Notes: generated by a model not told the origin, from the sequence alone. A stretch of DNA of 64,000 bases from an uncultured Planctomycetales bacterium (GCA_964520655.1 CAZFNI010000007.1:6398-70397), one strand, 5' to 3'; shown: positions 3,160 to 25,459, numbered from the stretch's first letter. A program made the numbers and translations.

Positions 3160-3180
3160 CTTTAAGTGCTAGGAGAAAAA

Positions 3181-8575: not shown

Positions 8576-10387
8576 ATGGATAAGAATAAACGGGACATAG
8601 CCCTGGATGCGGCATTTATTCTGATGGTCTTGGGTGGATTTGTGGCCGTGACCTGGGGCCGGTGGGCTCATCCGATCATTGATTACGGCCGCGAGGTGTA
8701 TGTCCCCTGGCGTATCACCGCGGGGGAGGTCTTATATAAGGACCTGGCTTATCTGTTCGGTGCTTTTCCGCCCTATTGGAATGCGCTGCTTTTTAAAGTG
8801 TTCGGCCCATCGATCGCCACCTTGACGGGATTCAACACCCTCCTGGCCCTGGCGGATGTGTTCTTGGTGTACCGGTTCCTGCTTCTGTCCGCCGATCGCT
8901 TGACCGCGCTTTTGGGCGCGGCTGGTTTTTTATTGCTGGCGGTCTGCAATCTGCACATGGCCTACAATATGTATTATTTGGCCCCCTATTCGCATAATGC
9001 CGCGTATGCGGTCTTTTTTGTTTTGTGCGCGTTAAATGTGCTGCCGTCGTTGTTGCGGATATTGGAGCACAGGGCATTCTTTTTATTGGGGCTTTTTCTC
9101 GCTGGAGCGTTGTTATCGAGGCTGGAAATATTCCTGGCCGCGGCGCTGGCGATCTTTACGGCTTTAGGGTTGTATTTTTGGAAATATTCAGTACAAAAAA
9201 ATAAAGCGTTCGCTTATATCGGCACGGCGGTGGCAGGCATTTTCTTTCCGGTATTTGTGTTCTGGGTGTATTTTGTGGCACACTTGCCGCCCTTAGAAGC
9301 ACTTTTTTCTATTATAGGCTATAACCCTCAGTGGCGAGAGGTGGCCCAAACAACACTGTATGCCAAGCAATATGCGGCGTGGCGGGAGAATGTCACGCTG
9401 ATGGCCATGGCGTTGGGAGGCAGCATGTTATTGATCGTCGGCATTGAGATATGCTGCCGGGGCATGATGTTATGGCAAAAGAGCAAAGAGCGGTTGAAAG
9501 CACTGTTGATGTGCGGTCTTTCTGTGTTGTTATATACAGGGGTTCTATATGTTTGCACGGGTGAGAATGTGTATGATGTGTTTCGGGGGCAGATCATCCT
9601 TCAGATCGTATTGGTCGTTTTTTGTTATAAAAGATTCCAGTCTTCCACTGGATTGGAAGATAATATCAGAACATTGTGCCTTTGGGTGTTGTGTGCCTGG
9701 GGGCTTTTCATGCTGGGGAAGATCCCCTTAAAATGTGTTGTCCGGGGCAGCGGCTTGATCTACGGGATCCCGGCGATGCTGACAGCGGTCGTTCTTTTCG
9801 CGTATCTTCTGCCGCAGCGGGCGCAAAGGCTTTACGGCCAGGGGCGTATTGCGGCAATAGCGGCAGCGCTGCTGCTGACATTTTTGTTCTGTCGGGTGTT
9901 GGCGTCTTCGTTGAATAACTTGTCGCTGCGTTTGAAGGCTGTCGGTCAGGGAGCCAATGCATTGCGGACCATTGATTACCCATTGCCATTCGGGCTTGGG
10001 ACCGACATTGAGAAATTCCTTTCTTGGTCGCGGGATCATTTGGGGAACAATGACACCTATGTTGTCCTGCCCGAGGGGGTCATGCTCAATTTCCTGACCC
10101 GTCACCGGATAACGGGCCAGCACATCACCTTTATGCCGGCGGAACTGGCAACGTTCACGGAAGAACGTATGCTGGCAGGGTTGAAGGATGTTCCGCCTGA
10201 TTATGTGGTCATTGTGAATAAGGATAATACGGCTTACGGGGATATGGTTTTTGGGAAGAATTACGCGCCGCGTCTTTATCAGTGGGTCATGACGCGGTAT
10301 TCGCCGGTCTGGGATTCCAGGGTTATCCCCAACCGGTATGCAGGCATAACGGTCTTCAAACGTCAGGAAATACAGGGGCATGAATAG
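8576..10387 (+). CDS. Family A-3 paralog (603 aa), putative GT-C membrane glycosyltransferase.
   Basis: GRWAHPIIDYGREVYVPW ... YKDLAYLFGAFPPYWNALLFKVFG. C-terminal VVLPEGVMLNFLTRHRITGQHITFMPAE. Confidence 0.75.
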   Translation: MDKNKRDIALDAAFILMVLGGFVAVTWGRWAHPIIDYGREVYVPWRITAGEVLYKDLAYLFGAFPPYWNALLFKVFGPSIATLTGFNTLLALADVFLVYRFLLLSADRLTALLGAAGFLLLAVCNLHMAYNMYYLAPYSHNAAYAVFFVLCALNVLPSLLRILEHRAFFLLGLFLAGALLSRLEIFLAAALAIFTALGLYFWKYSVQKNKAFAYIGTAVAGIFFPVFVFWVYFVAHLPPLEALFSIIGYNPQWREVAQTTLYAKQYAAWRENVTLMAMALGGSMLLIVGIEICCRGMMLWQKSKERLKALLMCGLSVLLYTGVLYVCTGENVYDVFRGQIILQIVLVVFCYKRFQSSTGLEDNIRTLCLWVLCAWGLFMLGKIPLKCVVRGSGLIYGIPAMLTAVVLFAYLLPQRAQRLYGQGRIAAIAAALLLTFLFCRVLASSLNNLSLRLKAVGQGANALRTIDYPLPFGLGTDIEKFLSWSRDHLGNNDTYVVLPEGVMLNFLTRHRITGQHITFMPAELATFTEERMLAGLKDVPPDYVVIVNKDNTAYGDMVFGKNYAPRLYQWVMTRYSPVWDSRVIPNRYAGITVFKRQEIQGHE

Positions 10388-12743
10388 GAATTTAGTCACC
10401 GTCGGTGTCATTTCGTTTTCGGCCATCTTGTTCCAGATATGCGTCACGCGCATTCTGGCGGTGACCCTGTGGTATCATTTTGCTTTTCTGGTGATCTCGC
10501 TTTCGATGCTGGGGATGACGGCAGCCGCGATCGCCTGTTTTGTTTTTTGGCCGCGTGTCATAGAAACACAAAGCCGGCGGTATTTTATTATTTTTGCAGC
10601 CCTGTTCGCCTTGCTTGCGCCATTATCCGTTGCTGTTCATTTAAATATCAATTTTCAGGAAGTGGCGTTCAACACGGCCGGATTTTATGCGATCGCGATG
10701 CTCCAGCTGGTGTTTTTGGCGGCGGCGTTCTTCGCCGCAGGGATGGCGTTAAATATCATTTTGTTCAAAGAACAGGAACGGATCGGATTTGTCTATTTCT
10801 GTGATCTGATCGGCGCCGCGGCGGCAAGCCTTCTGGTCATGGCGCTGTTATATTGGGTCAGCCCTATCGCTGTTGTGTTTCTCATTTCATTTTTGTCCTT
10901 ATGGGCAGCCTATGTGCAGGCATCGCATCAGGGCTTACGCCTGGCGCTGCTTTTATCAGCGGGAGTGATGCTGGTATTATTCATCAACAATGACGCGTGG
11001 CATATCTTTAAGATCAGGGCCGTGAAAAGTTATGGGGAGAAAGCGTTCCAGGTGGAGGACAAACCTCTTTTGTTCGAGAAATGGTCGCCGTTCGCGCGTA
11101 CGACGGTGTACAGCCCGACCCGCCATGACAGCGGGACATTATCCATTGAGAATAATTCCGGCGCACCGGCGGCAATGTTCAAATATGACCCGATGCTTCC
11201 GCCAACCCAGCTGAGGACCAGGCTTTACGGTCTTCAGGAAATGGCTTTTGTCCTCAAGAAGAGCGATGAAGCCTTGATCATCGGCTCAGGCGGAGGGAGG
11301 AATTTGCTGGCAGCGTTGCTCTCGGGTCAGGGCCATATCACGGCGGTTGAGGTCAATCCGGTGACTGCGGAGATCGTTACAAAGGATTTTTCGGATTATA
11401 TCGGCCGCATCTTTGAGGATTCCCGCGTTACTTTTCATGTGCAGGAGGGGAGGAATTTCATTGCCCGTACCCAACAGTTGTACGATGTGATCAATATCTC
11501 CATGGTTGAGAGCTGGGGGAATCAGGCCGCGGCCAGCAATTCGTATATTTTTACCGAGAACACCTTGTACACCAGAGAAGCGGTCTGGGATTATGTGCGT
11601 CATTTAAACCCGCAGGGGATACTGAGCATCACCCGGTATGATGATTTTGATGAAGGCTTGCGTTTAGTGAACACGATGATCGACACGCTGCAGGAGAGAG
11701 GGGAAAAAGACCTTAAGGACCAGTTCGTCGTTGTGTTGGGCTACAAGTATCGGGGATCGGTGGGGCTAGCCAATGTCATGTACAAACGCGGCGGATTCAC
11801 CAGGGAAGATGTGGCCAGGATCAGGGATTTTACATCCCGTAACGGTTTTAAGATCATTTACGCGCCGTTCTTGCCGGAGGCAGCAATGAGCGCGCTTCCC
11901 CGGTCGGAATTTTACCGCAAGCTTATCCTCGGGAAAGACAGGAGGGATGATCTGGTGGCGCGGTATCCCCGGATCATCAGCCCATCCACGGACGACAAAC
12001 CATTTTTTTTCTACATGGACCGATTTAAGGATTCATTTGTGTTCAATGCCAATGAACATGCGGCCCGAAGACGCGCTATCCCGATATTGTATGGATTGTG
12101 TGCGGGGGTAGCGGTGCTTAGCCTGATCATGGTCTTTCTGCCGTTGTTAGTTTACCGCCGTACACGTTTAAGCACGCTGTTGCAATGCCGGGTGAATTTG
12201 CTTTATTTTGCAGCGCTGGGAACGGGGTTTATGTTCATTGAGTTATCCCTGATACAGCGACTGACTGTTTTTCTGGGGCATCCCATTTACGCCTTGATCG
12301 TGGTGTTGACCGCCTTGCTGTTAAGCAGCGCTATGGGGAGCTTCTTCTCAGGAAGGATCAAGCCTCTAATGAAAGAGAAGGTGCTTAAGGTTGTGCTGCT
12401 GGCGATCGCCCTCTGTGGCGTTCTTGTGGGGGGAATTATGTTCGATCACCTGGCGCGCTGGATGTATTTACAGCAGCCGCTGCGTGTCATCGTTGCTGTC
12501 GCGACCATCGTTCCTTTGGGGGCTATGCTGGGGATGTGTTTCCCGCTGGGTGTTCATTTGCTGCAGGAGAAGGACAGGCAGCTGATCGTATGGGCGTGGG
12601 GTATCAACGGGATATTTTCTGTCTTAGGATCGGTGCTGGCCATGGTGCTGGCACTGCATATGGGATTTAAAGCCGTGTTCTTGATCGGAGCGGCATGTTA
12701 TTGCGGGGCATGGTTGGCGGTCAAACGCATGGGGAATCAATGA
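10380..12743 (+). CDS. Spermidine-synthase-like (aminopropyl/methyl-transferase fold) domain flanked by N- and C-terminal multi-TM domains (787 aa).
   Basis: The central segment IIGSGGGRNLLAALLSGQGHITAVEVNPVTAEIV ... DVINISMVESWGNQAAASNSYIFTENTLYTREAV matches the spermine/spermidine synthase fold. Hydrophobic N- and C-terminal regions are consistent with the known fused spermidine-synthase-like membrane proteins. Confidence 0.65.
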   Translation: MNRNLVTVGVISFSAILFQICVTRILAVTLWYHFAFLVISLSMLGMTAAAIACFVFWPRVIETQSRRYFIIFAALFALLAPLSVAVHLNINFQEVAFNTAGFYAIAMLQLVFLAAAFFAAGMALNIILFKEQERIGFVYFCDLIGAAAASLLVMALLYWVSPIAVVFLISFLSLWAAYVQASHQGLRLALLLSAGVMLVLFINNDAWHIFKIRAVKSYGEKAFQVEDKPLLFEKWSPFARTTVYSPTRHDSGTLSIENNSGAPAAMFKYDPMLPPTQLRTRLYGLQEMAFVLKKSDEALIIGSGGGRNLLAALLSGQGHITAVEVNPVTAEIVTKDFSDYIGRIFEDSRVTFHVQEGRNFIARTQQLYDVINISMVESWGNQAAASNSYIFTENTLYTREAVWDYVRHLNPQGILSITRYDDFDEGLRLVNTMIDTLQERGEKDLKDQFVVVLGYKYRGSVGLANVMYKRGGFTREDVARIRDFTSRNGFKIIYAPFLPEAAMSALPRSEFYRKLILGKDRRDDLVARYPRIISPSTDDKPFFFYMDRFKDSFVFNANEHAARRRAIPILYGLCAGVAVLSLIMVFLPLLVYRRTRLSTLLQCRVNLLYFAALGTGFMFIELSLIQRLTVFLGHPIYALIVVLTALLLSSAMGSFFSGRIKPLMKEKVLKVVLLAIALCGVLVGGIMFDHLARWMYLQQPLRVIVAVATIVPLGAMLGMCFPLGVHLLQEKDRQLIVWAWGINGIFSVLGSVLAMVLALHMGFKAVFLIGAACYCGAWLAVKRMGNQ

Positions 12744-14566
12744 GATTAAACATGGCAAAGATCGACAGACGAGTTGTGCAAGATGTCATTGTGCTGATGA
12801 TCGTCATGATGTATTTCATCGCAAGGACATGGGGGAAATGGGCCCACCCGATCACGGATTTCGGACGGGAATTGTATATCCCTTGGCGCTTAAGCGAAGG
12901 GCAAATATTATACAGGGACATTGCCTATTTGTTTGGTGCATTTCCCCCCTATTGGAACGCGCTGATGTTCAAGCTGTTCTCCCCGTCGCTGGCCATGTTG
13001 ATAACGATCGACCTTGTGGCGGCTTGTTTATACACAGCATTGATCTACCGCTTTTTATATGTCACAACCAACCGGTCAACAGCATTCATGGGAAGTTTGG
13101 GTTTCATGATGGTGTTCGTCTGTAATTTTATGGGGTATAACATGTATTATCTAACCCCCTATTCTCACAGCAATTTTTATGCCGTTCTCTTTTCTTTGGC
13201 CGCAATGAACCTGTTCCATCTTCTTTCGCAACACTTTAAAAAAAGGATGGTATTCGCGATCGGCCTGTTATTAGGCGGGGTGCTCTTATCACGTCTAGAG
13301 ATATTCCTGACGATCATTATCCCTGTTATTGTTGGTATAGCGATGTTGGTGGATCGACGCGGCAGCAAGGCAGTGATCGCACGGAGTTATGCTGTATTTC
13401 TTTTAGGGCTTGTGATCCCCGTTATCTGTGCATGGGGTTATTTCTTGCAGTATTTCCCAGCGGCACAGGCGCTGCAGAACATCGTGGGATATAATCCCCA
13501 TTGGCAGAAAATATCGGGTGTCTATTTGTACGCAAAACAATATCTCGGCTGGGAAAGGAATGCCTCTCTAACGGCAAAGGCAATAGCCGCGGGCTTTATA
13601 TTTTATGGAGCCATTGATCTGTTGTGCCGGGGTATTCGCGGGGGTCTTGACAATAAAGGGGCATATCGGTTTGCGGGGATGATCTTGCCGGGTTTTTGTA
13701 TGTATGCCTTGATCGTTTATCTGTGTGTGACGCCTTATGTGTACGATTCTTTTCGGGGAGCGGCCATGGCGGCTGTCGTGCTGGCTGCAGCTCTTTTCCG
13801 TCGACTGAAAGGTGTTCCGTCCTTGCCGCAGAGTATTCCAGGTCTGATACCGCTGCTGGTGTGTTGTTTCTGGGCAGTCTTGATGTTGTTCAAGGTGCCG
13901 CTGATGATCACCTTCCGGGGATACGGGCTGGTCTATGGGCTGCCGGCATTTCTGATGGGGGTGGTCCTTTTTGTGTATTTTGTCCCACAGCAGATGCAGC
14001 GGAAATATGGTCAGGGACAGTTGTCGCGGCGACTGGTATCCGCGTTGCTGCTGTTGATATGCGTGATGATATATTCTTCTTCATTCAAAAATTTGTCATC
14101 GAGGAACAAGGCTGTTGGTTCTGGGAATAATATTGTTGTTTATCTGGACAAGAAGTCCTCTTACGGACTGGCGGAAGATATTGAGCGTTTTCTCCTCTGG
14201 GCCAAGGATCATTTGGGCCCCAGGGACACGTATGTTGTTCTTCCTGAGGGAGTAATGCTCAATTTTTTCACCAGGCATGCGATCACCGGTCCGCATGTCA
14301 GCTTTATGCCCGCGGAAATGGCCACGTATGGGCAAGAAGAACTGTTATTGTCGTTAGAACGTGATCCGCCGGACTATGTGCTCATTGTCCACAAAGATAA
14401 TCGCGTGTATCCCGGGATGATATTGGGTAGAAATTATGCGGTAAGCATTGTAGACTGGGTCAAAAGAAATTACCGTTCTGTCTGGGATTCGCGCGAGAAT
14501 AAAAAACGTTTTGTCGGGATCGAAGTGTTTCAACGCGAGGGGATAAATGATCAAGATCTTTATTAG
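12740..14566 (+). CDS. Family A-4 paralog, putative GT-C membrane glycosyltransferase. The ORF track starts at 12695; the ATG at 12740, overlapping the upstream stop as ATGA, is preferred.
   Basis: GKWAHPITDFGRELYIPWRLSEGQILYRDIAYLFGAFPPYWNALMFKLF. C-terminal VVLPEGVMLNFFTRHAITGPHVSFMPAE. The distance from the start to the GKW motif matches the paralogs. Confidence 0.7.
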   Translation: MRLNMAKIDRRVVQDVIVLMIVMMYFIARTWGKWAHPITDFGRELYIPWRLSEGQILYRDIAYLFGAFPPYWNALMFKLFSPSLAMLITIDLVAACLYTALIYRFLYVTTNRSTAFMGSLGFMMVFVCNFMGYNMYYLTPYSHSNFYAVLFSLAAMNLFHLLSQHFKKRMVFAIGLLLGGVLLSRLEIFLTIIIPVIVGIAMLVDRRGSKAVIARSYAVFLLGLVIPVICAWGYFLQYFPAAQALQNIVGYNPHWQKISGVYLYAKQYLGWERNASLTAKAIAAGFIFYGAIDLLCRGIRGGLDNKGAYRFAGMILPGFCMYALIVYLCVTPYVYDSFRGAAMAAVVLAAALFRRLKGVPSLPQSIPGLIPLLVCCFWAVLMLFKVPLMITFRGYGLVYGLPAFLMGVVLFVYFVPQQMQRKYGQGQLSRRLVSALLLLICVMIYSSSFKNLSSRNKAVGSGNNIVVYLDKKSSYGLAEDIERFLLWAKDHLGPRDTYVVLPEGVMLNFFTRHAITGPHVSFMPAEMATYGQEELLLSLERDPPDYVLIVHKDNRVYPGMILGRNYAVSIVDWVKRNYRSVWDSRENKKRFVGIEVFQREGINDQDLY

Positions 14567-16529
14567 GAGCATGTTTATCGCGTTGATCGCCGCATGTTTG
14601 ATCGGCATGTCCGACCTGATATTCATTTCTGTTTCCCCTAAAGCGTTTATCAGTTTCAGGAATATCACTGTTCTGGCCGGAGTTCCGGTCCTGGCGATGA
14701 ACTGGCTGCTGGTCTTTTTCGCAACGTTCATCCTTGTGTTCGTATGTTCTTGGCTGGGAGGCTATGTTGTCGCCGGGATCTTTTCTTTATGGACGATCTT
14801 TTATTTGATCAGTTGGGGGACATATTTAGTCGTTGGTGAGTTTCTTGGTTTCGAGGGGATCCGGTTTGTTTGGTATAACCTCAATGATATCCTCTGGATG
14901 ATGGGACAGATCTCTGCCTGGTATTGGGTGGCTTTGACCGTCCTGGTACTAACGCCGGTCGCTGGTTTTCTTTTGACCAACAGGTTTAGTCATTATTTCA
15001 AGAAGATCATCACCGCTCTTGAAGTGAGGCAAAGAGTAGTTGCTGGGATCGGTGTTCTGGTTTTATGCACGTTGATGGCGATCGCGTTTATTCTTTTTGC
15101 GTCGTTGACCCCCAAACAGAAAGCTGACTTAAGATTACGTGTTTCTCCCCAGGCGACATTGTTCTGGGACCGTCCGCAAAAAGAGATCCTTTTGGGACGC
15201 GCGCATGATCAAGAGCACTTAAGAACACATTACTCCCAGGTTATTGGATGGGAGGATTATCAGAAGATGCAGGTCAAGACCGTCAAGCCTGTTCCTGTGA
15301 TCGTCATAGTCATTGAGTCCATGTGCTGGGACGTTTTGAACAATGCGCAGGTGATGCCCAACACGTACGCTTTAAAACAGGATGGAGTGTATTTACGCGC
15401 GTATACGACCAGCAATCAATCCGATTATGCGTGGCCCGCGATATTCTCGTCACAATATCCCCTGCGGACCAGATATCATTATTATTATCCCAGAGAAAGC
15501 CGCTTCCCGCGCGTTACCATCTATGACGTATTAAAGCAACAGGGATTCGACACGGCTATCTATTCTGCCCAGAATGAGACCTGGGGGGGAATGTTCAATT
15601 ATTTGAATACCGGGTCTTTAGACATGTTCTATTATTCCGATGCCTCTCATGGGGAGGATTATATGTCCCACGAAGATTCCGGGTTCGCTGCCTATACGAA
15701 AAAGTTCAGATCCCCGGGGAAGATCGATGATGGAGTGGTGGTCGATGAGGCCATATCGTGGATCAAAGGAAGGCATCAGGATAAGTTCTTTCTTGGTCTT
15801 AATTTTCAGCGTTCGCATTTCCCCTATACCTGGCCCGACTCATTCCATCCCCCTGATCCGGGAGTAAAGCCAAGCGGCTGGGGATATTCACGCACTCTGG
15901 TCAAGGGTGTAAAGGCCAGGTATTTCAGTGCGTTGCGTTATACGGATGAACAGATCGGACGTTTTATTAATTTCTTAAAAGAGCAGGGGATCTATGAAAA
16001 GAGCATTATTGTATTGATGGGCGACCACGGAGAGGCCTTTTATGAACATGCTTCTCCGATCCATGGGAATGAACTCTTCAATGAAACTGCTTTGACCGGG
16101 TTGTTGATCAAGGGATCAAACGAGCGCATAACCGTCAAAAATTATAAGAATCCGGAACTTCTGGATGTTGCTCCGACGCTATCTTCAATGTTGGGATTGA
16201 CGATACATCCGGCTTTTCAGGGGGAATCACTAGTGGCCCCGTCTTCTTTTTCAAAACCAGTCTTCATCACGGTGCAGTCGGCTATCGCTAAACAGGATGC
16301 GATCGTCGCGGGCGGGTGGAAATTGATCCGGGATCTGCGTAATAACAGGACATCTCTTTTTGATCTTCGACGTGATCCTGGGGAAAGCAAGAATGTTTAT
16401 CAATCCAATCAGGTTCAAGGGCTGAAACTGTTGCTCCAGTTGCTGTATTGGCGCAAGAAGCAGTTAGAGTATTATTCAACACCGGACATGGCAAAAAAAT
16501 ATTATGCCCCCAAGTACTCGTCCCCATAA
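14547..16529 (+). CDS. Membrane-anchored sulfatase-family enzyme (alkaline-phosphatase superfamily), LtaS / phosphoglycerol- or phosphoethanolamine-transferase-like.
   Basis: About 5 N-terminal TM helices followed by a soluble domain with VIVIVIESMCWD and the signature LMGDHGEAF. The architecture matches LtaS/MdoB/EptA-type transferases. Confidence 0.65.
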   Translation: MIKIFIRSMFIALIAACLIGMSDLIFISVSPKAFISFRNITVLAGVPVLAMNWLLVFFATFILVFVCSWLGGYVVAGIFSLWTIFYLISWGTYLVVGEFLGFEGIRFVWYNLNDILWMMGQISAWYWVALTVLVLTPVAGFLLTNRFSHYFKKIITALEVRQRVVAGIGVLVLCTLMAIAFILFASLTPKQKADLRLRVSPQATLFWDRPQKEILLGRAHDQEHLRTHYSQVIGWEDYQKMQVKTVKPVPVIVIVIESMCWDVLNNAQVMPNTYALKQDGVYLRAYTTSNQSDYAWPAIFSSQYPLRTRYHYYYPRESRFPRVTIYDVLKQQGFDTAIYSAQNETWGGMFNYLNTGSLDMFYYSDASHGEDYMSHEDSGFAAYTKKFRSPGKIDDGVVVDEAISWIKGRHQDKFFLGLNFQRSHFPYTWPDSFHPPDPGVKPSGWGYSRTLVKGVKARYFSALRYTDEQIGRFINFLKEQGIYEKSIIVLMGDHGEAFYEHASPIHGNELFNETALTGLLIKGSNERITVKNYKNPELLDVAPTLSSMLGLTIHPAFQGESLVAPSSFSKPVFITVQSAIAKQDAIVAGGWKLIRDLRNNRTSLFDLRRDPGESKNVYQSNQVQGLKLLLQLLYWRKKQLEYYSTPDMAKKYYAPKYSSP

Positions 16530-17505
16530 AGGTTTTCCTGTGATGGTGCTGGCCTTTGTTGCGGCGGCCCTAGCCACGGTCATTGTATTGTTGGTCTGGA
16601 TGCTTTTGCCCAAGCAGCGGTTCGTGCATACGCGCTATGACAAGGATCTGGGATGGGTTAATATCCCGAATTTAAATATTTCCGATGCGTTCGGAAAAGG
16701 CGTTTCTATCAGGACGAACGCTCAGGCTTTCCGTAATGACAGGGAATTCTCCATCGCTGTTCCGGCGGGGAAAAAACGGGTCATTTGCCTGGGGGATTCT
16801 TATACCTTTGCCTATGGGGTTGATAATGACCATGCCTGGTGCCAGCAGCTGGCGTTGCTGGACCCGCGCATCGAAAGCGTCAACATGGGGCAGGGGGCCT
16901 ACGGCATTGATCAGGCTTACTTGTGGTACAAACGAGACGGCCTGCCGTTGGACCATCATCTGCAGGTGTTCGCCGTCATTTATGATGACTTTAACAGATT
17001 CGGTAAAAGGTTCCTTGGTTACGAGAAGCCGGTTCTGGAGTTGCACGGAGGGAATTTGACGGTAGGGAATATTCCTGTCCCCAAGCAGTCAGTCTTGCAG
17101 CGGCGGATGGGGCAGATCATGGGAACATTGTATCAGTCCTCTAAGGTTAGCAGATCACAGCAGCGTCGGCTGGCGCTGGCTGTTTTTGAAGATTTGGATA
17201 AGATCAATAAGGGTAAAGGCGGCCGTTTGGCGGTCGTGTATCTACCGACCTATTTCGCGGATATGGGGCATAACAGCAACCGGGAGCTGCGCGCCTTTCT
17301 CAATGATGAACTTTTTAAAAGAGGGATCCCTTTTATCGATCTGACGGACGATTTCGCGCGGCTGCCAAAAGCACAGATCAGGGCGATGTATAATATCAAC
17401 GATCAGAAAGGCGGACATTATACGGAAATGGGGAATGCGTTCGTTGCAAAACTGCTTTTACCGCGATTGTCTGTGCTAATGGAGCAGCAGGGGATAGAGA
17501 GGTAG
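16504..17505 (+). CDS. SGNH/GDSL-family hydrolase (esterase or acyl-group hydrolase) with an N-terminal membrane anchor. The start may be downstream, at about 16540-16543.
   Basis: Block I motif VICLGDSYTFAYGV (GDS). A hydrophobic anchor VMVLAFVAAALATVIVLLVWMLL. It overlaps the upstream gene by 26 nt if the 16504 start is used. Confidence 0.6.
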   Translation: MPPSTRPHKGFPVMVLAFVAAALATVIVLLVWMLLPKQRFVHTRYDKDLGWVNIPNLNISDAFGKGVSIRTNAQAFRNDREFSIAVPAGKKRVICLGDSYTFAYGVDNDHAWCQQLALLDPRIESVNMGQGAYGIDQAYLWYKRDGLPLDHHLQVFAVIYDDFNRFGKRFLGYEKPVLELHGGNLTVGNIPVPKQSVLQRRMGQIMGTLYQSSKVSRSQQRRLALAVFEDLDKINKGKGGRLAVVYLPTYFADMGHNSNRELRAFLNDELFKRGIPFIDLTDDFARLPKAQIRAMYNINDQKGGHYTEMGNAFVAKLLLPRLSVLMEQQGIER

Positions 17506-17515
17506 TTTGGCTGAT

Positions 17516-19570
17516 ATGCGCAATGTCATCAAATTCGGTTGGCCGCTTGTTCTGTGGATGATCCTTTGCCGGGATCTCATCTGTGGAGCCATTCCATTTA
17601 ACATGGACACCAATACCATTTACGGGGTGGCCAAATTTTATTTTAATAATGTTTTTAACGGCGTTGTCCCCTTGTGGGACCCGTTCGTCAGTCTGGGCCA
17701 TCCGTTCTATGCCTTGTCGATCTGCAATTTGTTCAATCCCGTAACGCTGTTGATGCCGCTCTTGAAGCTGTGCGGCTTGTCGTACAATATCGCCTTCGCT
17801 TTGTATATGACCGCGTATTTCTGGGTCGGGGGCATGGGATTCTATTTTCTATTAAAGAGGCTCCTCAACGATAAAAGCTTGGCCTATCTCGGCTACGTGG
17901 CGCTGTTATTCTCCAGCTTTGGTCTTAGCATGTTCACCCAGTTCACATTCCTGGAGATCGTCGTCCCGGCCATTTGGTTCTTTTATTTCCTGGCCGCGTA
18001 TTTCGATCGGCAAACCAGGGGGCATTTGCTTGGTCTGACATGCGCATTGATGGCCGCGCTTTCGTCCTATTTGCCGTTTTATTTTCTAACGGTGCTGTTC
18101 GTGTTCATTGCCGCCGTTATTGTATTGTACCCCAAAGAAACATGGAGCTACTGCATCCGCTCATTCGCATTCAAATTCCAGCATTGGCCGTTGACTTTTC
18201 TTTGTGCGGCAGGCATTGTCTGTGCCGCCGGACCACTGTTGGCCTATAAAATGCTCGATGCTTCAGGCGACGCTGTCTCTCCCGGACGGCACTGTCAATA
18301 TTCGTCCATCGAGGAGTGTTATAACCGCACCATCAATCATCAGGGCGGCATGCTCTATGAAGAGATCGCCCGCAGCGGCGGACTTGGGGAACGTTTGGAT
18401 ATTGGGTATTTATTCACCCATTTGGATAAGTTGACCTATGGCAGTGATTCGCTTTTCTTCGTTCCGGTATTGATCTATATTCTGATTGTTTTATCCATTG
18501 GTTTGAAATGCAGCCGTTTTAATGTGCTGTTAGTCGCCATGATGACCGGCATCGGCCTGATCGGGCTTGGCAGCGCTTGCGGTCTGCACCGTTTTTTATA
18601 CGACCACGTTTTCTTCTTTAAATATTTCCGAAATTTATTCTTCCTGGGGGCATTCTTAATTCCGCTTGCGATCATCTTCGCGCTTAGGCAGTTGAAAGAA
18701 CTGTTGTTATATAAACCGGCAGATGCCAGCCGTAAAAAGTTCGCTATTGTCGCCATTGTGGCAACCCACGCCGGCATGGCGGCGTATTTATGGCATTTAG
18801 GCGGCATTATCCCGTCGATATGGATCACGTTGGTGTTGAGCGCGGCGATGTTCTCTCTGTACTATGCGGGCGGATGGGTCTGGCCGCTTCGATACTGGAT
18901 GTGGGGGATGGTTCTGCTCATGCTCATTGAGCCCTTGGCGCTCATGCATGCCTATGCGCAAAACGCCGTGGAATTCCGCTGCGTATTGCCTAATGCCCAT
19001 GTGGTCCCGCGATTTTCCTGGGTGCGTCCGGATAAGCCGGCCACCAGCGCCTGCCGCATCTATCAATTTGTCCCCTATGAAGACTTCTGGTATGCCATGA
19101 GCATGACCGACGCCCCGGCGGTGGTGGGATACCCACAGGCCGCGGCGCGCTATGTGTTCATGCTCTCCAAACAATTAGGGGACGTGCCGTTATCACAATA
19201 TGCGAAATATAAAGTGTACCTGTTCGATGACCTGACCTCGTCGGGTCAGGTCATCGACGGCACACAGCCGTCGGTGCGTATCGTGCATTTTGACGTCAAC
19301 CGCGTTGTGTTCGATGTCGATCTGCCCAAGAGAAAGCAGCTGGTCTATAATGACGCTTATACCCAGCAATGGCGCGTTCTTGTCGACGGTCGGCATCAGG
19401 AACTTGTGCGGGCCAGTGGCGCCTTCAAAGGGGTTTGGGTAGAGCAGGGGCGTCACCGGGTGGAGTTCTCCTATCACCCGCCCGGGGGACAATGGGTCTA
19501 TCTGTTAACGACGGCGGTCCTTTTGGTATTTTTCATTATTACTGGGATAATGCTATGGAAAAAAATATGA
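17516..19570 (+). CDS. Family B-1: YfhO-like polytopic membrane protein (putative GT-C glycosyltransferase using a polyprenyl-phosphate sugar donor).
   Basis: About 685 aa and multi-TM. The C-terminal region NDAYTQQWRVLVDGRHQELVRASGAFKGVWVEQGRHRVEFSYHPP matches the characteristic YfhO C-terminal block ([WF]-x-[AV]-x-VDG ... G-x-H-x-[IV]-x-[FW]-x-Y). The ORF-track start at 17507 is TTG; the ATG at 17516 is preferred. Confidence 0.6.
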   Translation: MRNVIKFGWPLVLWMILCRDLICGAIPFNMDTNTIYGVAKFYFNNVFNGVVPLWDPFVSLGHPFYALSICNLFNPVTLLMPLLKLCGLSYNIAFALYMTAYFWVGGMGFYFLLKRLLNDKSLAYLGYVALLFSSFGLSMFTQFTFLEIVVPAIWFFYFLAAYFDRQTRGHLLGLTCALMAALSSYLPFYFLTVLFVFIAAVIVLYPKETWSYCIRSFAFKFQHWPLTFLCAAGIVCAAGPLLAYKMLDASGDAVSPGRHCQYSSIEECYNRTINHQGGMLYEEIARSGGLGERLDIGYLFTHLDKLTYGSDSLFFVPVLIYILIVLSIGLKCSRFNVLLVAMMTGIGLIGLGSACGLHRFLYDHVFFFKYFRNLFFLGAFLIPLAIIFALRQLKELLLYKPADASRKKFAIVAIVATHAGMAAYLWHLGGIIPSIWITLVLSAAMFSLYYAGGWVWPLRYWMWGMVLLMLIEPLALMHAYAQNAVEFRCVLPNAHVVPRFSWVRPDKPATSACRIYQFVPYEDFWYAMSMTDAPAVVGYPQAAARYVFMLSKQLGDVPLSQYAKYKVYLFDDLTSSGQVIDGTQPSVRIVHFDVNRVVFDVDLPKRKQLVYNDAYTQQWRVLVDGRHQELVRASGAFKGVWVEQGRHRVEFSYHPPGGQWVYLLTTAVLLVFFIITGIMLWKKI

Positions 19571-19788
19571 TCCTAAAGATATTATTGCGCAATGCGCTGC
19601 TGTTCTTGATCGCGGCAGCCCTGCTCTCAAAAAGCGTTGATCGGCAGGAATGTTTTATCAAGCGCGGAAAATATTTATTAGGGATCGTTTATAACGGTTT
19701 TTTCCAGAATGAGCGCGACAAGATCGTGTACGAGGATTATTTAAAGCGGCATGGCAGCTCCCCTGAGATATTCCAAAAGGGGTTATAA
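19555..19788 (+). CDS. Small hypothetical protein (77 aa) with an N-terminal hydrophobic segment.
   Basis: ATG at 19555 overlaps the end of the upstream gene, and the CDS otherwise fills a 300-nt gap. MEKNMILKILLRNALLFLIAAALL. No recognisable domain. Confidence 0.3.
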   Translation: MEKNMILKILLRNALLFLIAAALLSKSVDRQECFIKRGKYLLGIVYNGFFQNERDKIVYEDYLKRHGSSPEIFQKGL

Positions 19789-19867
19789 GCCATCGCGAAA
19801 GAGTGTTGCCATGGCCTTGTGTTGTCTGCTAGTATGGGGGCCTGTAATTACCCACTAAAGATATATC

Positions 19868-20719
19868 ATGAATCTGAAAAGATCGTTTAGAGATTTTCGC
19901 CGGCAGGTCATCCGCTTGTGGCGCATCAATTCCGCGATACCGCGGCTGCTGCGGTACAATCCGTATACTGGCTTTATCGGACGGAGGCTGTTCCAATATA
20001 TCCCGTTCTTGTTGCCGCATGATAAAAGTTACTACGGCTTCGCGCATCTGGTGCATCAGGGGCCTGGTCTTTTTCTGGATGTGGGAGCCAATGACGGGAT
20101 CTCCGCGATCGGGTTCCGCCACATCCACAGCGACTACGATATCATTTCCATCGAACCCAATTTGTGCCATGAGCGGGCGTTGCGCAAATTAAAACGCCGT
20201 CTGACCCGGTTTGAGTTCAAACTGATCGGGGCGGGCCGCGAGCGTTCCCAGATGACCTTGTATATCCCTATTTATAACGGGGTGCCGATCTACACCGCGG
20301 CTTCCCTGCGGCGGGATTATGTCATGACCACGATGGAAGAGCAGCATTTGCCGGGGCAGAAAGATAAGAGCATTGTCATTGTGGAATACAAAGTGGACAT
20401 TGTCCCTCTGGATGAGCTGGGATTAAAGCCAGACATCATCAAGATCGATACAGAGGGTTTTGACCTGGAGGTGCTGCTGGGACTGCAGCAAACGATCGCC
20501 GTTGCCCGGCCGTCAATATTGATCGAGCATAATCCCGATCTGCTTCCCAAGCTGGAGGTGTTCTTTAAGGAACGCGACTACCTTTTGTTAACCTATGACC
20601 ATCCCTCCGACAGTTTCACTCTTTTTGATAGGAAAAAAGAGCTGGATATTTATCAAAATCAGAAAGTGACGACCAATATTTTCTGCGTCCCTAAAGAAAA
20701 ATCATCGGGCTTATGCTGA
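19868..20719 (+). CDS. FkbM-family SAM-dependent methyltransferase.
   Basis: FLDVGANDGISAIGF glycine-rich motif and IDTEGFDLEVLLG are typical of the FkbM family. 283 aa. Confidence 0.65.
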   Translation: MNLKRSFRDFRRQVIRLWRINSAIPRLLRYNPYTGFIGRRLFQYIPFLLPHDKSYYGFAHLVHQGPGLFLDVGANDGISAIGFRHIHSDYDIISIEPNLCHERALRKLKRRLTRFEFKLIGAGRERSQMTLYIPIYNGVPIYTAASLRRDYVMTTMEEQHLPGQKDKSIVIVEYKVDIVPLDELGLKPDIIKIDTEGFDLEVLLGLQQTIAVARPSILIEHNPDLLPKLEVFFKERDYLLLTYDHPSDSFTLFDRKKELDIYQNQKVTTNIFCVPKEKSSGLC

Positions 20720-23196
20720 CGGTATTAATATCAGTTGGCCTGTCTTTGCTGGCCTCTTTGTTCTTATTCTCGGACCTGTTCTGGTTCCATAACCAGAGCT
20801 TCATGTGGCATCATGATACCGAGATCCCTTTTGAGAATACCTTTAACATCATTTCATTCTTTTCTCAGGGCGGGGTGCAGCTTTTCGACCCTTTCGACGG
20901 TTTTAATTACGCGTATTCCCATTTAAGCAGCGGGTTTTACACTGTAGCCAATGCCATCACCGCATTTATTTATCTATTGTTCTCTCCGTTCTATAGTGAA
21001 CCCGGGCAGGCCTACCATCATTGTTTCAGTGTTGTGTTCCATGCGGTCACGATGCTTTTGCGCACGATCGGCGGGTATTGTCTGCTTAACCGCATGAGAC
21101 TCAACCGTCCGGTCATGGTCATTTCCCTTGTGATCCTCAATACATTTTTGTCGTCGACGATGTATTTTGGATTATTGACGGATAATCTGTATTCCTATTT
21201 CCCGCTCCTGGCGTATTTTATCGTGAGTTATTTCGAGCATTTCCGCGCCAGGGATCTGGCGGCAGCATTCTTGGTGTTTGTCATTTGCGTCGCCAATTCC
21301 CCATTCTTTGCGCTGGGCTATTTTTATGAACCGGTGCATTTTTTGATCTTAAGCGCCGCGTTGATCGGATTGATATTCTATCGGCGCAGCATCAAGTGGC
21401 ATAAGCTTGGCGAACCGATGCTGTGGATCAAGACAGCGGGTGTTCTGCTGCTGGCGGCGCTGATCTTGCTGCCGTCGGGGATGCTGTCAAAGTCCCTGTC
21501 GAAAGATTTTTATGTGGCTAATTCAGGCATTAATGGGACAGAGGGGCGTTTAAAAAGCATATTTAATCCCAAGAAATATTTCTCGCCAAAATCAGAAACA
21601 TTGATCCCCCTTAAGGAGCTTCCGTTCAAGGTCGTCGATACGACCAATGACTGGTGGGAGAAATCGTGGATATTCTGGGGAGCGGGCATCATTGGGTTGG
21701 CGTTCTTTGGTCTGGTTGCCAGTCATCGACGGGAGAAATATATGTTCGGCGCCGCGATGGGGTTGATCGTGCTCTCCAATACCGCGCTTGATCCCTCTTC
21801 TCCGTTGTCGCTGGCGCACTGGATCAATGCCTTAACCAATCCTTTTGCGTTCTTGTTGCGCAGCTATCATATGCCGATCCTGTTGATGCCCTATCTGCTC
21901 TTTGTGCCTGTGGCGTTAGGATTGCAGGCGGTATGGGACCTCTCTGTTCGGATCAAAGGCCATGTGCATTGGTTTAAAAGCATGGTGCTGGTCGTTGGTC
22001 TAGTCCTCTTATTAAAGCTGGCGCTGACTTTCCCGGAACCGGTCAGAAGTTATGCTGCTATTGTTGCCGGTTTGTTCATTGGACTTGCTGTTGTGCTCAT
22101 CGCACCGCTTGCGCCTAAAGCGCGCATGGTCACAGCGGCGGTCTTGATGCTTGTCATCGCCGGTATCGACAGTAACGCATTGTGGAAATATTATGTCCAG
22201 AATCAATACCATGGACGCTATTTCTGTAAGGACGACGGGCGGCACATCAAGCCGCGGATATTCGATGATTTTAAGCAAGAGGTGCCGCTGATCTTGGAAT
22301 ACCAGGACCCGGCCATGATCCCCTGGCGCGAATTCGTGCGTGTTTTCCCCACACAGACCGCGCCGGCCATGCACAGCGAGCAAAATCATTATGGATTGTT
22401 CTACCGGTATCATGCCTTAGAGCGTTTCTTGCTGGAACCCAATATTTACGCGCCGCGGCCTTATGTGTATAAAGATCTCTATCAAGATACGGAGACGATC
22501 CGTCTGCTGGCCCAGGATCCCCGGTCGATATTTCTGGCGTCAGATGTCAATGGCGGTGCCGTGCAGGACCTGGGACGGCATCTCGAGCGTTTTGAACTGG
22601 ATATGCGCCGGGGGAAATTTGTCACAAAAGAGGGTTATTTGCAAGGGCAGTGGAAGCTTCCGGATGGATTTAATCCTTTTGCCGCGACCGGGGTGTTCAC
22701 GTTGGATCAGGACCTGATGAAGGCAGCCGTTGATGGGGAGATCTATACGCCGGTCCAGGGGGCACTGACCGCTTTGCGTCAATTTGATGTGAACAATATC
22801 AGAAAAGGATATCTGACAGCAGCGCTGCCGCGGGGTTTTGTGGTCAAAGATAAACCGTTGCTGTTATTCTATCACCGCAGCAATGAACTGCTGCGGGTGA
22901 GAGAAAATACGCTGGACCGCATGACGTTTGATTTTCTGGCGAGCAGGGCAGGGTATTTAAAGACCAGGATCGCCTTCAATGATCAATGGCGCGTTACTGT
23001 TGACGGCAAAGAAGTTACACCTGTGAAGGTGGACAAATATTTCCTAGGCGTGCCGATCTCCCAAGGACAGCATACGATCACATGGCAGTATGGCGCGGGG
23101 AGCATGTTACGCGTATGGATCATTGTGTCCATGCTGTTGACTTTCCTGGTGTTGGCTGCTGTTTTACGTTTTTCGATCAGAAGTTCTGCCTTTTAG
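20713..23196 (+). CDS. Family B-2: YfhO-like polytopic membrane protein (827 aa).
   Basis: Shares with the B-3/B-4/B-5 paralogs the blocks QGGVQLFDPFDGFNYAYS and HWINALTNPFAFLLRSYHM, plus the C-terminal NDQWRVTVDGKEVTPVKVDKYFLGVPISQGQHTITWQY (YfhO-like). Confidence 0.65.
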   Translation: MLTVLISVGLSLLASLFLFSDLFWFHNQSFMWHHDTEIPFENTFNIISFFSQGGVQLFDPFDGFNYAYSHLSSGFYTVANAITAFIYLLFSPFYSEPGQAYHHCFSVVFHAVTMLLRTIGGYCLLNRMRLNRPVMVISLVILNTFLSSTMYFGLLTDNLYSYFPLLAYFIVSYFEHFRARDLAAAFLVFVICVANSPFFALGYFYEPVHFLILSAALIGLIFYRRSIKWHKLGEPMLWIKTAGVLLLAALILLPSGMLSKSLSKDFYVANSGINGTEGRLKSIFNPKKYFSPKSETLIPLKELPFKVVDTTNDWWEKSWIFWGAGIIGLAFFGLVASHRREKYMFGAAMGLIVLSNTALDPSSPLSLAHWINALTNPFAFLLRSYHMPILLMPYLLFVPVALGLQAVWDLSVRIKGHVHWFKSMVLVVGLVLLLKLALTFPEPVRSYAAIVAGLFIGLAVVLIAPLAPKARMVTAAVLMLVIAGIDSNALWKYYVQNQYHGRYFCKDDGRHIKPRIFDDFKQEVPLILEYQDPAMIPWREFVRVFPTQTAPAMHSEQNHYGLFYRYHALERFLLEPNIYAPRPYVYKDLYQDTETIRLLAQDPRSIFLASDVNGGAVQDLGRHLERFELDMRRGKFVTKEGYLQGQWKLPDGFNPFAATGVFTLDQDLMKAAVDGEIYTPVQGALTALRQFDVNNIRKGYLTAALPRGFVVKDKPLLLFYHRSNELLRVRENTLDRMTFDFLASRAGYLKTRIAFNDQWRVTVDGKEVTPVKVDKYFLGVPISQGQHTITWQYGAGSMLRVWIIVSMLLTFLVLAAVLRFSIRSSAF

Positions 23197-23240
23197 AGAA
23201 AAATTCAAGCAAATTTTTTGAGAATAGGTATAATGCCCCT

Positions 23241-24662
23241 ATGCAACAAACGCATTTTGATTATTGTGTGGTGGGCAGCGGCCCAAGCGGTCTGACCGCG
23301 GCCTATAAGCTTCTTAAAGGGGGCAAAAGCGTCCTGCTCATTGAACGCGATGACCGCATCGGCGGTTTGGCCAAAAGCTATGAATATGACGGCCACATCT
23401 TCGATACCGGCCCCAAACGTTTTCATACTGACGATCCCGTGGTGCTGGACTTCATCCAGGAGATCACTAAAGGCCATATCGCCACCATCGGCCGCTCGAC
23501 CAAAGTTTTTTTCTTAGGCAAATATTTTGAATGGCCCCTGCAGACCAAGGACCTGATCAAAATGCCGGCGGGTGTTTCTTTTAAATGTGCCATCGATTTG
23601 CTGAAAAAACGTCCGATCACCGATAAGGCCTCGTTTCACCAATTCATCAATTCCAAATACGGCGAAACACTCTACGGCGTTTTCTTCAAACCATATACAC
23701 AGAAATTCCTGCGCTGGGATACGGAAGACATCCATTCCGATTGGGCTTCGACAGGCATCAACCGCACGGTCATCGATAAACGCATCAATGCCAATTCACT
23801 ATTGGACCTGTTCCGTTCTTTGCTGCTTCCCGCGAAAGTAGAGACTGAATTCTTATACCCGTTAGAAGGCGGCTTCGGTGGTTTTTATGAACAGATGCTG
23901 GGGCTTTGCCGTCAAATGAAAGGTTTTCACCTGCAGCTATCCGACACGATCGTTCAGCTGAAGGATACTGGAAAGATCTTCGAAGCCCAAACCGCTGCAC
24001 GGCAGAATTTCACGTTCACGGACTTGATATGGACGGGGAATTTAAACGCGTTAAGCGCTGTCGTTGCGCCTAAGAATACGAACGTCAGTTATCTGAATAC
24101 GATCTTTTACAATGTGATCTGTAAAGAAGAGGGCGTCGGCCAGCAGAAAGCACAGTGGATCTACGTCAGCCGTGGGGATAGTTTGATCAGCCGCATCACC
24201 TGCATGAAAGAATTTCTGCCTTATACCTGCCGCGAGGGCTATTACAACATGATCTGTGAGTTGACGGATTCTCAGAAGGTTCCTCATTATTTTAACGACC
24301 CGCAGGCGCATAAAGACGGCATTTTAGATGAGTTGGCAGGGATGAGATTCATCCGCAACAAAAAATATGTAGATGCGGTGCATGTGGAGCCGGTCAAGGA
24401 CACGTATCCGATCTATCACCGCCGCTACAGCCATGATTTTGCCAAAGTCAAGGCGGGCATCGCTCAGTTCTCCAAACGCATCCATTTGCTGGGCCGCTGC
24501 GGTGCGTTCTGGTATAACAATTCCGACCATTCCATCCGTTTTGCCATCGAGACAGCGGACAAACTGCTGGGTGCTCAGAAAAAAGAATTCGATTACCGGG
24601 ATTATTTCGGCGGTCTTTACGGAGCCGGTGCTCATCAGGCGGAAGAAAGCGTCACCACATAA
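23241..24662 (+). CDS. FAD/NAD(P)-binding oxidoreductase (amine-oxidase / UDP-galactopyranose-mutase-like superfamily). The ORF-track upstream extension from 23082 is rejected.
   Basis: Rossmann dinucleotide motif DYCVVGSGPSGLTAAYKLLKGGKSVLLIERDDRIGG at the N-terminus. The ATG at 23241 follows the upstream stop at 23196. Confidence 0.6.
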   Translation: MQQTHFDYCVVGSGPSGLTAAYKLLKGGKSVLLIERDDRIGGLAKSYEYDGHIFDTGPKRFHTDDPVVLDFIQEITKGHIATIGRSTKVFFLGKYFEWPLQTKDLIKMPAGVSFKCAIDLLKKRPITDKASFHQFINSKYGETLYGVFFKPYTQKFLRWDTEDIHSDWASTGINRTVIDKRINANSLLDLFRSLLLPAKVETEFLYPLEGGFGGFYEQMLGLCRQMKGFHLQLSDTIVQLKDTGKIFEAQTAARQNFTFTDLIWTGNLNALSAVVAPKNTNVSYLNTIFYNVICKEEGVGQQKAQWIYVSRGDSLISRITCMKEFLPYTCREGYYNMICELTDSQKVPHYFNDPQAHKDGILDELAGMRFIRNKKYVDAVHVEPVKDTYPIYHRRYSHDFAKVKAGIAQFSKRIHLLGRCGAFWYNNSDHSIRFAIETADKLLGAQKKEFDYRDYFGGLYGAGAHQAEESVTT

Positions 24663-24675
24663 GCCGGAGGTTGTG

Positions 24676-25452: not shown

Positions 25453-25459
25453 TCTTCCT

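Follow-up and report, generated by a model that had tools for sequence, protein, structure and literature searches.

Several membrane enzymes of the alkaline-phosphatase (AP) superfamily, namely LtaS, GacH, EptA and MCR, use a hydroxyl nucleophile and form a covalent phospho-intermediate (10.1101/337519; PMC7576196). One of these, GacH, transfers glycerol phosphate, is LtaS-like and is encoded within a glycan cluster (10.1101/337519). Systems composed of a GT-A enzyme, a flippase and a GT-C enzyme are general and also modify lipopolysaccharide (LPS) and O-antigen in Gram-negatives (PMC8035078). The stretch of DNA analysed here (GCA_964520655.1, CAZFNI010000007.1:6398-70397), which is 64,000 nt in length and is referred to as the window, contains three consecutive open reading frames (ORFs) on the plus strand. 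ORF1 (14547..16529, 660 amino acids) encodes five transmembrane (TM) helices followed by a predicted periplasmic AP-superfamily domain, as identified by Pfam, a structural model and alignments. ORF2 (16504..17505, 333 amino acids) encodes a type-II membrane-anchored SGNH/GDSL-fold esterase or acyltransferase, and ORF3 (17507..19570, 687 amino acids, TTG start) encodes a GT-C glycosyltransferase of the YfhO family. All three proteins are of known kinds: a transferase-like membrane enzyme of the AP superfamily, an SGNH hydrolase and a YfhO-type GT-C. With moderate confidence, they are read here as parts of an island for the periplasmic assembly and decoration of a glycoconjugate, like GacL/GacH or ArnT/EptA.

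The active site and classification of ORF1

ORF1 and ORF2 overlap by 26 nt, and ORF2 is separated from ORF3 by 1 nt. Gene calls in a sister genome imply later starts for two of the genes: Met9 of ORF1 (14571), which may be the true start, and an ATG at 17516, which is likely the true start of ORF3. The three ORFs are regarded as real genes because each has numerous database homologues and, going solely by their overlapping and abutting ends, they are probably co-transcribed. A promoter scan of the 12-21 kb region returned counts no higher than shuffled sequence, and every terminator-like match in the same region lies within an ORF.

The AP-fold domain of ORF1 is matched by Pfam Sulfatase (PF00884, 1.1e-32, residues 251-550), with weaker matches to Phosphodiest and SGSH_C. 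Hydropathy and the AlphaFold2 model (mean pLDDT 83) place all five TM helices N-terminal to this domain. The basic N-terminus and a strongly basic loop (residues 141-163) predict that the catalytic domain faces the periplasm together with the loop that carries S89-W90...F99, a motif that is invariant in the family.

The family was aligned with 34 and then with 120 relatives. Position 292 is Ser in 108 of the 120 relatives, Thr in 10 and Cys in none, and the residues that follow conform to S-D/N-Y-A-x across the family (S-D-Y-A-W in ORF1). The formylglycine motif C/S-x-P-x-R is absent from ORF1, and no relative combines Pro at +2 with Arg at +4 (0/120). Profile alignments pair the Ser292 column with the formylglycine position of sulfatases (3ed4, 1.3e-38; 7stt, 1.4e-35). 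In the model, strand 281-286 is directly followed by helix 292-301, whose first residue is Ser292; this is the canonical position of the nucleophile in the AP superfamily. Alignments to the LtaS-like structure 3lxq and to EptA of E. coli place the Thr of those enzymes two residues before Ser292. Ser292 is kept as the candidate nucleophile because it is the only strictly Ser/Thr column, aligns with the formylglycine position and begins the helix.

The metal and phosphate residues predicted to complete the site are E257, H424, D493, H494 and H506. E257, H424, D493, E500 and H506 are each kept in 111-119 of the 120 relatives (E257 in 111, H424 in 119, D493 in 117, H506 in 119); H494 varies (H in 51, N in 43, T in 18). 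The first metal motif, E257-S258 ('ES'), is like 'QESLG' of 3lxq and 'GET' of EptA, where sulfatases have 'DD'. When the family hidden Markov model is aligned with E. coli EptA, 'SHfPY' (H424) pairs with 'SHGP' and 'GDHGEAFYEHxxxxH' (D493, H494, H506) pairs with 'SDHGESLGENGIYLH'; H424 and D493/H494/H506 likewise pair with 'SHGP' and 'DHGESLGENGIYLH' of the E. coli enzyme. The same spacing, an Asp-His pair followed by a His at +12, is found in MCR-1 (D250/H251/H263; PMC7576196).

The scores of ORF1 against curated models are low throughout: 81 bits for arylsulfatase (cut-off 481), 36.3 bits for LtaS (NCBIfam NF053595, cut-off 970), 15-22 bits for the EptA models (cut-offs 493-561) and 13 bits for OpgB (cut-off 572). 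By these models, ORF1 fits none of the curated LtaS, EptA, OpgB or arylsulfatase families. Foldseek does not discriminate among the candidates either, since S1 sulfatases, full-length PbgA/YejM, LtaS and LtaP are all matched at 1e-15 to 1e-17 (the LtaS structure 2w5r at 6e-15). The C-terminal subdomain is of the sulfatase type and carries 'LFDLRRDPGE', and the domain as a whole is most like the S1 sulfatases. A nucleophile column restricted to Ser and Thr and the lack of xPxR in every relative argue that ORF1 is not a formylglycine sulfatase, and the conserved residues support its assignment as a transferase-type enzyme.

The ORF1 family comprises about 439 clusters (50% identity) at E <= 1e-30. 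Among species-representative genomes it occurs in Omnitrophota, Planctomycetota, Gemmatimonadota, Acidobacteriota, Myxococcota, Verrucomicrobiota and Gammaproteobacteria; the 79 ORF1-family loci listed include diderm phyla only and none from Firmicutes. The family appears mildly unusual in its sequence, as it joins a Ser/Thr nucleophile and EptA-like histidines to a sulfatase-like scaffold and also has a domain of five TM helices. The GC content falls to 0.469 over ORF1 (14001-16000), where most of the window has about 0.50-0.53, and the nearest homologue outside the sister genome has 43-44% identity for ORF1 and 75% for ORF3. The dip together with the low identity would fit an accessory gene that was acquired more recently or evolves faster.

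An earlier note on this DNA had placed three enzyme classes consecutively at 14547..19570. The ORFs are exactly as it described them, and its class assignments (AP-superfamily transferase-type, SGNH and YfhO) agree with Pfam, Foldseek and hhalign. The Cys/Ser-x-P-x-R motif, which it had named as the sign of a true sulfatase, is the one missing from all 120 relatives, with a Ser/Thr hydroxyl column in its place. Its description of ORF1 as LtaS-like stands for the architecture, as five TM helices with an AP-fold domain are also found in LtaS, EptA and PbgA, but not for the score against the LtaS model. The classing among LtaS, EptA, OpgB and arylsulfatase that it had proposed was borne out in the transferase-type residues; no curated cut-off is reached, and S1 sulfatases are nearest overall.

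Gene partnerships of ORF1, ORF2 and ORF3

The same arrangement of the three genes is present in a sister genome (GCA_041910255.1), which was located through the ORF2 relative P0121 and whose proteins are 97-98% identical; it was seen nowhere else. In the two loci with the nearest ORF1 orthologues outside the sister genome (L001 and L002, 43-44% identity), a gene of the membrane-protein family designated A lies directly upstream of ORF1, and neither an SGNH nor a YfhO gene follows it. The window has the same arrangement, with a PMT_2/ArnT-like GT-C of family A (12695..14566, plus strand; paralogues at 4930, 6761 and 8576) directly upstream of ORF1. Family A is considered PMT_2-like since eight of its 11 members match Pfam PMT_2 (best 1.2e-10); the gene at 12695..14566 itself has no match. 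A PMT_2 gene is also directly upstream of the ORF1 homologue in an Omnitrophota locus (L011), and a GT87 gene lies beside a Verrucomicrobial homologue. Within 8 kb, a family-A relative occurs in five of the 79 ORF1-family loci and a relative of ORF2 or of the YfhO-type family B in none.

ORF3 has other companions. Its orthologues at 54-75% identity have neither ORF1 nor ORF2 upstream, and as ORF1 and ORF3 keep different partners and the trio is limited to the sister genome, the neighbourhoods indicate that the adjacency is a lineage-specific junction of modules, in which ORF2 is inserted between a module of family A with ORF1 and a block of ORF3 with its downstream genes. Judged from these loci, the three genes do not form a unit in function or in evolution, and the recurring partner of ORF1 is the PMT_2-type GT-C gene directly upstream.

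ORF3 exceeds the gathering cut-off of Pfam YfhO (PF09586) with 40.2 bits against 28.5, the match being confined to residues 584-666, and most of its orthologues carry the same domain. By hhalign (probability 98.2% over 467 columns), its TM domain is homologous to that of family B. Asp34, which lies in the first outward loop, is kept in at least 90% of sequences, and an outward C-terminal domain precedes the last TM helix. The top curated matches of ORF3, and of the YfhO-type gene at 20713-23196, are PgfM2/PgfM1, far below cut-off. ORF3 is far better conserved than ORF1, as its orthologues have 50-75% identity.

In two loci (L088 and L097) and, by gene calls, in a contig of JGI sample 3300071358, the ORF3 orthologue heads a block that includes genes for a membrane protein of 73-77 residues, for an FkbM methyltransferase and for a second YfhO-type protein. 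The corresponding genes in the window, all on the plus strand, are a 77-amino-acid single-TM protein (19555..19788) that overlaps the stop of ORF3 by 16 nt, an FkbM-family methyltransferase (19868-20719) and a second YfhO-type GT-C (20713-23196). In L088 the block runs on with amine oxidase, SDR and AsnB genes, like the window at 17507-27340. The 77-residue protein directly follows every ORF3 orthologue with readable DNA (four other contigs) and features the motif RGKYLLGIxYNGxFQN...VYxDYLKxHG. Orthologous gene calls have no Pfam match; the window copy itself was not scanned. The protein may be a small subunit of the YfhO-type ORF3, and we know of no description of such a conserved partner for YfhO.

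Upstream of the ORF3 orthologues, three loci contain two divergently transcribed multi-TM genes encoding about 540 residues each (L088, 4162-7420; L097, 2921-6185; L090, 4243-7675), and the JGI contig has two such divergent membrane proteins by gene calls only. Where DNA is at hand, these proteins are distantly related to family A, with matches only at the N-terminal loop and the C-terminus. The same slot is occupied in the window lineage by the four co-oriented family-A genes, ORF1 and ORF2. In L090 (10001-14574), the ORF3 orthologue and its small protein abut genes of the right flank of the window at 51.7 kb, and the flank genes common to both are CxxCxxCC, LPG_synthase_C, RNase_T and chorismate-binding. 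This junction implies that the array of membrane proteins of about 30 kb (19868-50445) is a variable island inserted at a conserved site.

ORF2 has a CLGDSYT motif behind a single N-terminal TM helix, and its basic N-terminus predicts that the SGNH domain faces outside. The protein alone has no Pfam match over threshold, and Lipase_GDSL_2 is matched by all 35 aligned relatives. Its AlphaFold2 model (pLDDT 89) matches GDSL/SGNH structures with a Foldseek probability of 1.0, e.g. TesA, acetylxylan esterases and PatB, the top structural match being CgnD, an enzyme of a peptide pathway. G97-D98-S99 and H305 are invariant, with Ser99 lying within the GDS motif; the Asp of a DxxH motif before the catalytic His is not conserved, as this stretch is gapped and variable. 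DltD is matched by none of the 35 relatives in Pfam and is absent from the top 50 structural matches, and weak ALGX matches occur in four of the 35 relatives. Members of the ORF2 family have a near-invariant E21-G22 in the TM helix followed by a juxtamembrane motif, AERxHTxYDxxLGWxNxPN; the conserved Glu-Gly and this motif hint at an interaction within the membrane.

The ORF2 family is large (>850 matches). One homologue lies in a separate glycan cluster with GT4, GT2, AsnB, radical SAM/SPASM and PMT_2 genes, and in another Omnitrophota genome weaker relatives precede an ORF1 homologue by a few kb; the contexts of relatives in Nitrospira and one other genome are uninformative. In the JGI contig (93,853 bp; gene calls only), genes for an MBOAT, a GNAT acetyltransferase and a GDSL/TPR protein are located at about 12042-15550, after the ORF3 orthologue. 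By these gene calls, the MBOAT and GDSL proteins are a classical MBOAT-SGNH O-acylation pair, and the window has no such pair.

The surrounding island and the host lineage

The window is bacterial, as indicated by an Era-type GTPase at 61977, and has a GC content of about 50%. An all but unbroken series of large genes on the plus strand extends from 0.5 to 50.4 kb, and a mosaic envelope-glycan island spans about 0.5-51.6 kb. Because the three ORFs lie inside a run of envelope-glycan genes of about 50 kb, the adjacency of their enzyme classes is unremarkable. All-against-all BLAST of the multi-pass membrane proteins resolved three paralogue families. Family A (4930, 6761, 8576 and 12695) consists of proteins of about 600 residues with 9-13 TM helices and has no hhalign relation to the ORF3 family. 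Family B (20713, 31113, 35905 and 42359) has ORF3 as a distant relative, and all four members match Pfam YfhO at the C-terminus. Family C (29062-31116, 33454-35904, 39895-42372, 45284-47068 and 48298-50445, with fragments at 44850 and 47061) has 10-13 predicted TM helices in four of its five members and eight in the shorter part encoded at 45284-47068. It was not called as GT-C, having neither a Pfam match nor an hhalign relation to the YfhO paralogues. A 157-residue ORF at 44850-45323 is like the N-terminus of family C and 45284-47068 is like the remainder, and the pair resembles one family-C gene that has been split or frameshifted.

Among the membrane proteins, soluble tailoring enzymes are also encoded, namely an FkbM methyltransferase, an amine-oxidase-like flavoprotein, an SDR, an AsnB-type amidotransferase, a GMC oxidoreductase and a GT2-methyltransferase fusion. 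At the end of the island, a GT2 (GT-A) of the polyprenyl-phosphate sugar synthase type is encoded on the minus strand (50876-51598; Pfam Glycos_transf_2, 1.4e-21). Its top NCBIfam matches are PgfS, PpgS, AglJ, ArnC and Dol-P hexose transferase, each below its own cut-off, and it is a candidate supplier of lipid-linked sugar donors to the GT-C enzymes. The array starts with two paralogous genes on the plus strand (533-2980 and 3166-4887; 43% identity over about 350 residues) whose products each have one N-terminal hydrophobic segment and no Pfam or NCBIfam match; these could be secreted acceptors or glycan-binding proteins. Between family-A genes, 10380-12743 (plus strand) encodes a protein of 787 residues with about 16 predicted TM helices around a central spermidine-synthase-like domain (Pfam 4e-5). 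A homologue of this protein (39% identity) is found 5.6 kb upstream of the ORF1 homologue in an Omnitrophota metagenome-assembled genome (L010).

The nearest named homologues of ORF1 and ORF3 belong to metagenome-assembled genomes of Candidatus Omnitrophota/Omnitrophica. An overview paper on Omnitrophota is silent on LPS and glycosylation. BamD and LptE are encoded on the contig of a syntenic relative and, because of these genes, the lineage appears to be diderm, with an outer membrane containing LPS.

Proposed role and comparison with known systems

In the preferred reading, the three products would work on the outer side of the inner membrane, and their substrate there would be a glycoconjugate, which could be an LPS-like or capsule-like glycan or a glycoprotein. 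The GT2 (50876-51598) would load sugars on polyprenyl phosphate, and the GT-C enzymes (four PMT_2-like of family A and five of the YfhO type, including ORF3) would transfer them in the periplasm. By analogy with LtaS, GacH, EptA and MCR, Ser292 of ORF1 would attack the headgroup phosphate of a membrane phospholipid to give a covalent phospho-enzyme with release of diacylglycerol, and the phospho-substituent, either phosphoethanolamine or glycerol phosphate, would then be passed to a hydroxyl of the glycan. Since ORF1 is repeatedly paired with a PMT_2-type GT-C gene, the acceptor is most likely the sugar that the product of the adjacent upstream gene, a PMT_2-type enzyme, attaches. On the same surface, ORF2 would either attach an O-acyl group or take one off. 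For ORF3, a role in sugar transfer is proposed, probably in concert with the 77-residue protein, with a GT2 (for example that at 50876-51598) making the polyprenyl-phosphate donor.

Several observations weigh against this reading. The ORF1 domain scores 136 bits against hydrolytic S1 sulfatases compared with 87 against LtaS and 35 against EptA, and its family forms a clade without a characterised member. In other phyla, ORF1-family genes are mostly solitary, and their neighbours are of mixed kinds, such as transporters, transposases and peptidases. Among the window ORFs, no flippase of the GtrA/GtcA type was recognised, nor were MBOAT, AT3, carrier-protein or ligase genes, so that ORF2 has no acyl-donor partner there, and no fold could be recognised for the five or six large membrane proteins of family C. 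The host lineage, judged by homologue names only, is probably closest to Omnitrophota.

An unlikely but still serious alternative is a protein O-glycosylation island of the Pgf type, in which ORF3 and its paralogues glycosylate secreted proteins and ORF1 adds phosphoethanolamine or phosphocholine to proteins or glycans, as PptA/EptC do. The PgfM2/PgfM1 matches of ORF3 and 20713-23196 and the PgfS match of the GT2 are in its favour, as are the two paralogous secreted or anchored proteins at the array start (533-2980 and 3166-4887) and the membership of protein mannosyltransferases in the PMT_2 family. Given the same top matches, protein glycosylation stays a candidate target beside the surface polymer or lipid headgroups that the earlier note had suggested as an alternative to it. 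The scores are, however, far under the curated cut-offs (24 bits against 1500 and 71 against 500), and neither an acceptor motif nor an adhesin was identified. In addition, teichoic acids, rhamnan and LPS are also among the targets of YfhO and PMT_2 enzymes (PMC8035078).

It is decidedly unlikely that ORF1 is instead a hydrolase, whether a phosphodiesterase, a phosphatase or an atypical sulfatase, with a part in trimming or remodelling glycans or lipids. Such an enzyme would agree with the sulfatase-type C-terminal subdomain and with S1 sulfatases and phosphonate monoester hydrolases being the best matches by sequence and by profile, and YejM, a five-TM relative, has phosphatase activity (PMC7576196). 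Against this, the formylglycine motif is found in none of the 120 relatives, the His set is EptA-like, the ORF1 gene is repeatedly paired with GT-C genes, and the conserved five-TM domain with its invariant periplasmic loop motif (S89-W90...F99) is typical of lipid-donor enzymes.

The earlier note had favoured a trio that decorates a teichoic-acid-like polymer, in which ORF1 builds or extends a polyglycerol-phosphate or phospholipid-anchored chain, ORF3 glycosylates it and ORF2 acylates or alanylates it. This is very improbable. The LtaS-like architecture and hydroxyl nucleophile of ORF1, the YfhO family membership of ORF3 and the overlapping or abutting genes, with their probable co-transcription, are compatible with it. 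However, to our knowledge ltaS, csbB-yfhO and dltABCD are not clustered with one another in Firmicutes, so that the three classes side by side are not a teichoic-acid signature. The trio recurs in the sister genome only, and none of the 79 ORF1 loci has an ORF2 or YfhO relative. The LtaS model is missed by a wide margin (36 bits against 970), and the ORF1 family, among the loci listed, is confined to diderm phyla. ORF2 could not be upheld as a DltD-type protein, as it shows no DltD signal and has no DltB/MBOAT neighbour. A phospho-polyol target found no backing: the window encodes no TagO/TagB/TagF/TagD-type (Tag/Tar) functions, no glycolipid-anchor pathway and no DltA/B/C, and the lineage is apparently diderm, given BamD and LptE on the contig of the syntenic relative. 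Least probable of all is a role for ORF1 as a PbgA/LapC-type sensor or regulator without catalytic activity. In its favour, LapC is the best of three E. coli relatives tested (6.5e-23, TM region aligned) and full-length PbgA structures are among the top Foldseek matches. Against it, the family shows hardly any variation in the nucleophile or in the metal and phosphate ligands, and the gene lies in a variable accessory island rather than a core LPS-control locus.

If the assignment to periplasmic glycoconjugate decoration is correct, the gain is mainly better annotation, as a "sulfatase" would become a Ser-nucleophile membrane enzyme of the EptA/LtaS style that is neither a sulfatase nor a lipoteichoic acid synthase. 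Such annotation would apply to a family found widely across little-studied diderm phyla, and from its pairing with GT-C genes comes a testable hypothesis, the phospho-decoration of a periplasmically added sugar. The island also presents module swapping as a route to surface-glycan variation in uncultured Omnitrophota. The finding opens no long-standing question and its reach is modest. A more far-reaching proposal, which is quite improbable, is that the ORF1 clade (about 440 clusters at 50% identity) is a sulfatase scaffold turned into a lipid-dependent phospho-substituent transferase that works with GT-C enzymes, and that the island of >45 kb with at least nine GT-C genes builds an anionic, teichoic-acid-like polymer in a diderm. 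In such a conversion the formylglycine motif would have disappeared from the clade, while a Ser/Thr nucleophile, an EptA-like set of histidines and a lipid-binding five-TM domain would have been acquired.

Among the known systems, the S1 sulfatases and phosphonate monoester hydrolases have the highest overall similarity to ORF1 and share a (weak) SGSH_C-type subdomain and the 'DLxxDPxE' motif. ORF1 differs from the sulfatases in lacking C/S-x-P-x-R, in having 'ES' for 'DD' and an invariant His for the sulfate-binding Lys, and in its N-terminal five-TM domain. The catalytic set of LtaS consists of the nucleophile Thr300 and the metal ligands E255, D475 and H476, and ORF1 has Ser292, E257, D493 and H494 at matching positions. 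LtaS and LtaP also resemble ORF1 in topology and fold, in the 'ES' of the first metal motif and in the D-H pair; ORF1 is unlike them in using Ser rather than Thr, in that no glycerol-phosphate-binding residues were identified in it, and in its hosts, which are not Firmicutes.

ORF2 resembles PatB, AlgX/AlgJ, DltD and the acetylxylan esterases in its SGNH fold, GDS serine, invariant His and outward-facing membrane anchor, and differs from the SGNH O-acyl enzymes in that it has no conserved DxxH Asp, no DltD match, only weak ALGX matches (4/35) and no MBOAT/AT3 partner in the window. ORF3 is like YfhO, CsbB-GtcA-YfhO and PgfS-PgfM1/M2 in passing the Pfam YfhO threshold, in its conserved first-loop Asp and in the presence of a GT2 in the island. 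Unlike those systems, only its C-terminal 80 or so residues match Pfam, no flippase was recognised, the GT2 is 31 kb distant and a 77-residue partner is present.

EptA and MCR share with ORF1 the five TM helices, the periplasmic AP-fold and the residue set E, hydroxyl, H, D-H and H at +12 (PMC7576196), with the register around the nucleophile in the EptA alignment ambiguous by two residues. ORF1 is unlike them in its Ser instead of Thr, in the extra sulfatase-type C-terminal subdomain and in H494, which varies between H, N and T. In the case of EptA and ArnT, a PMT_2/ArnT-like GT-C acts on the same envelope molecule, lipid A, and a similar relationship is proposed by analogy for ORF1 and family A. 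GacH differs in having 11 TM helices, a Thr nucleophile, an LtaS-clade domain and a Gram-positive host, where ORF1 has five TM helices, uses Ser as the nucleophile, is built on a sulfatase-like scaffold that includes a C-terminal subdomain, and has diderm relatives. GacH/GacL of the Streptococcus pyogenes group A carbohydrate are nonetheless like ORF1 and its partner in combining a membrane AP-superfamily enzyme that has a hydroxyl nucleophile and an E/D/H metal site with a PMT_2-type GT-C in a glycan cluster, and GacH decorates a sugar that is added outside the membrane on the streptococcal rhamnose polysaccharide (10.1101/337519; PMC8035078).

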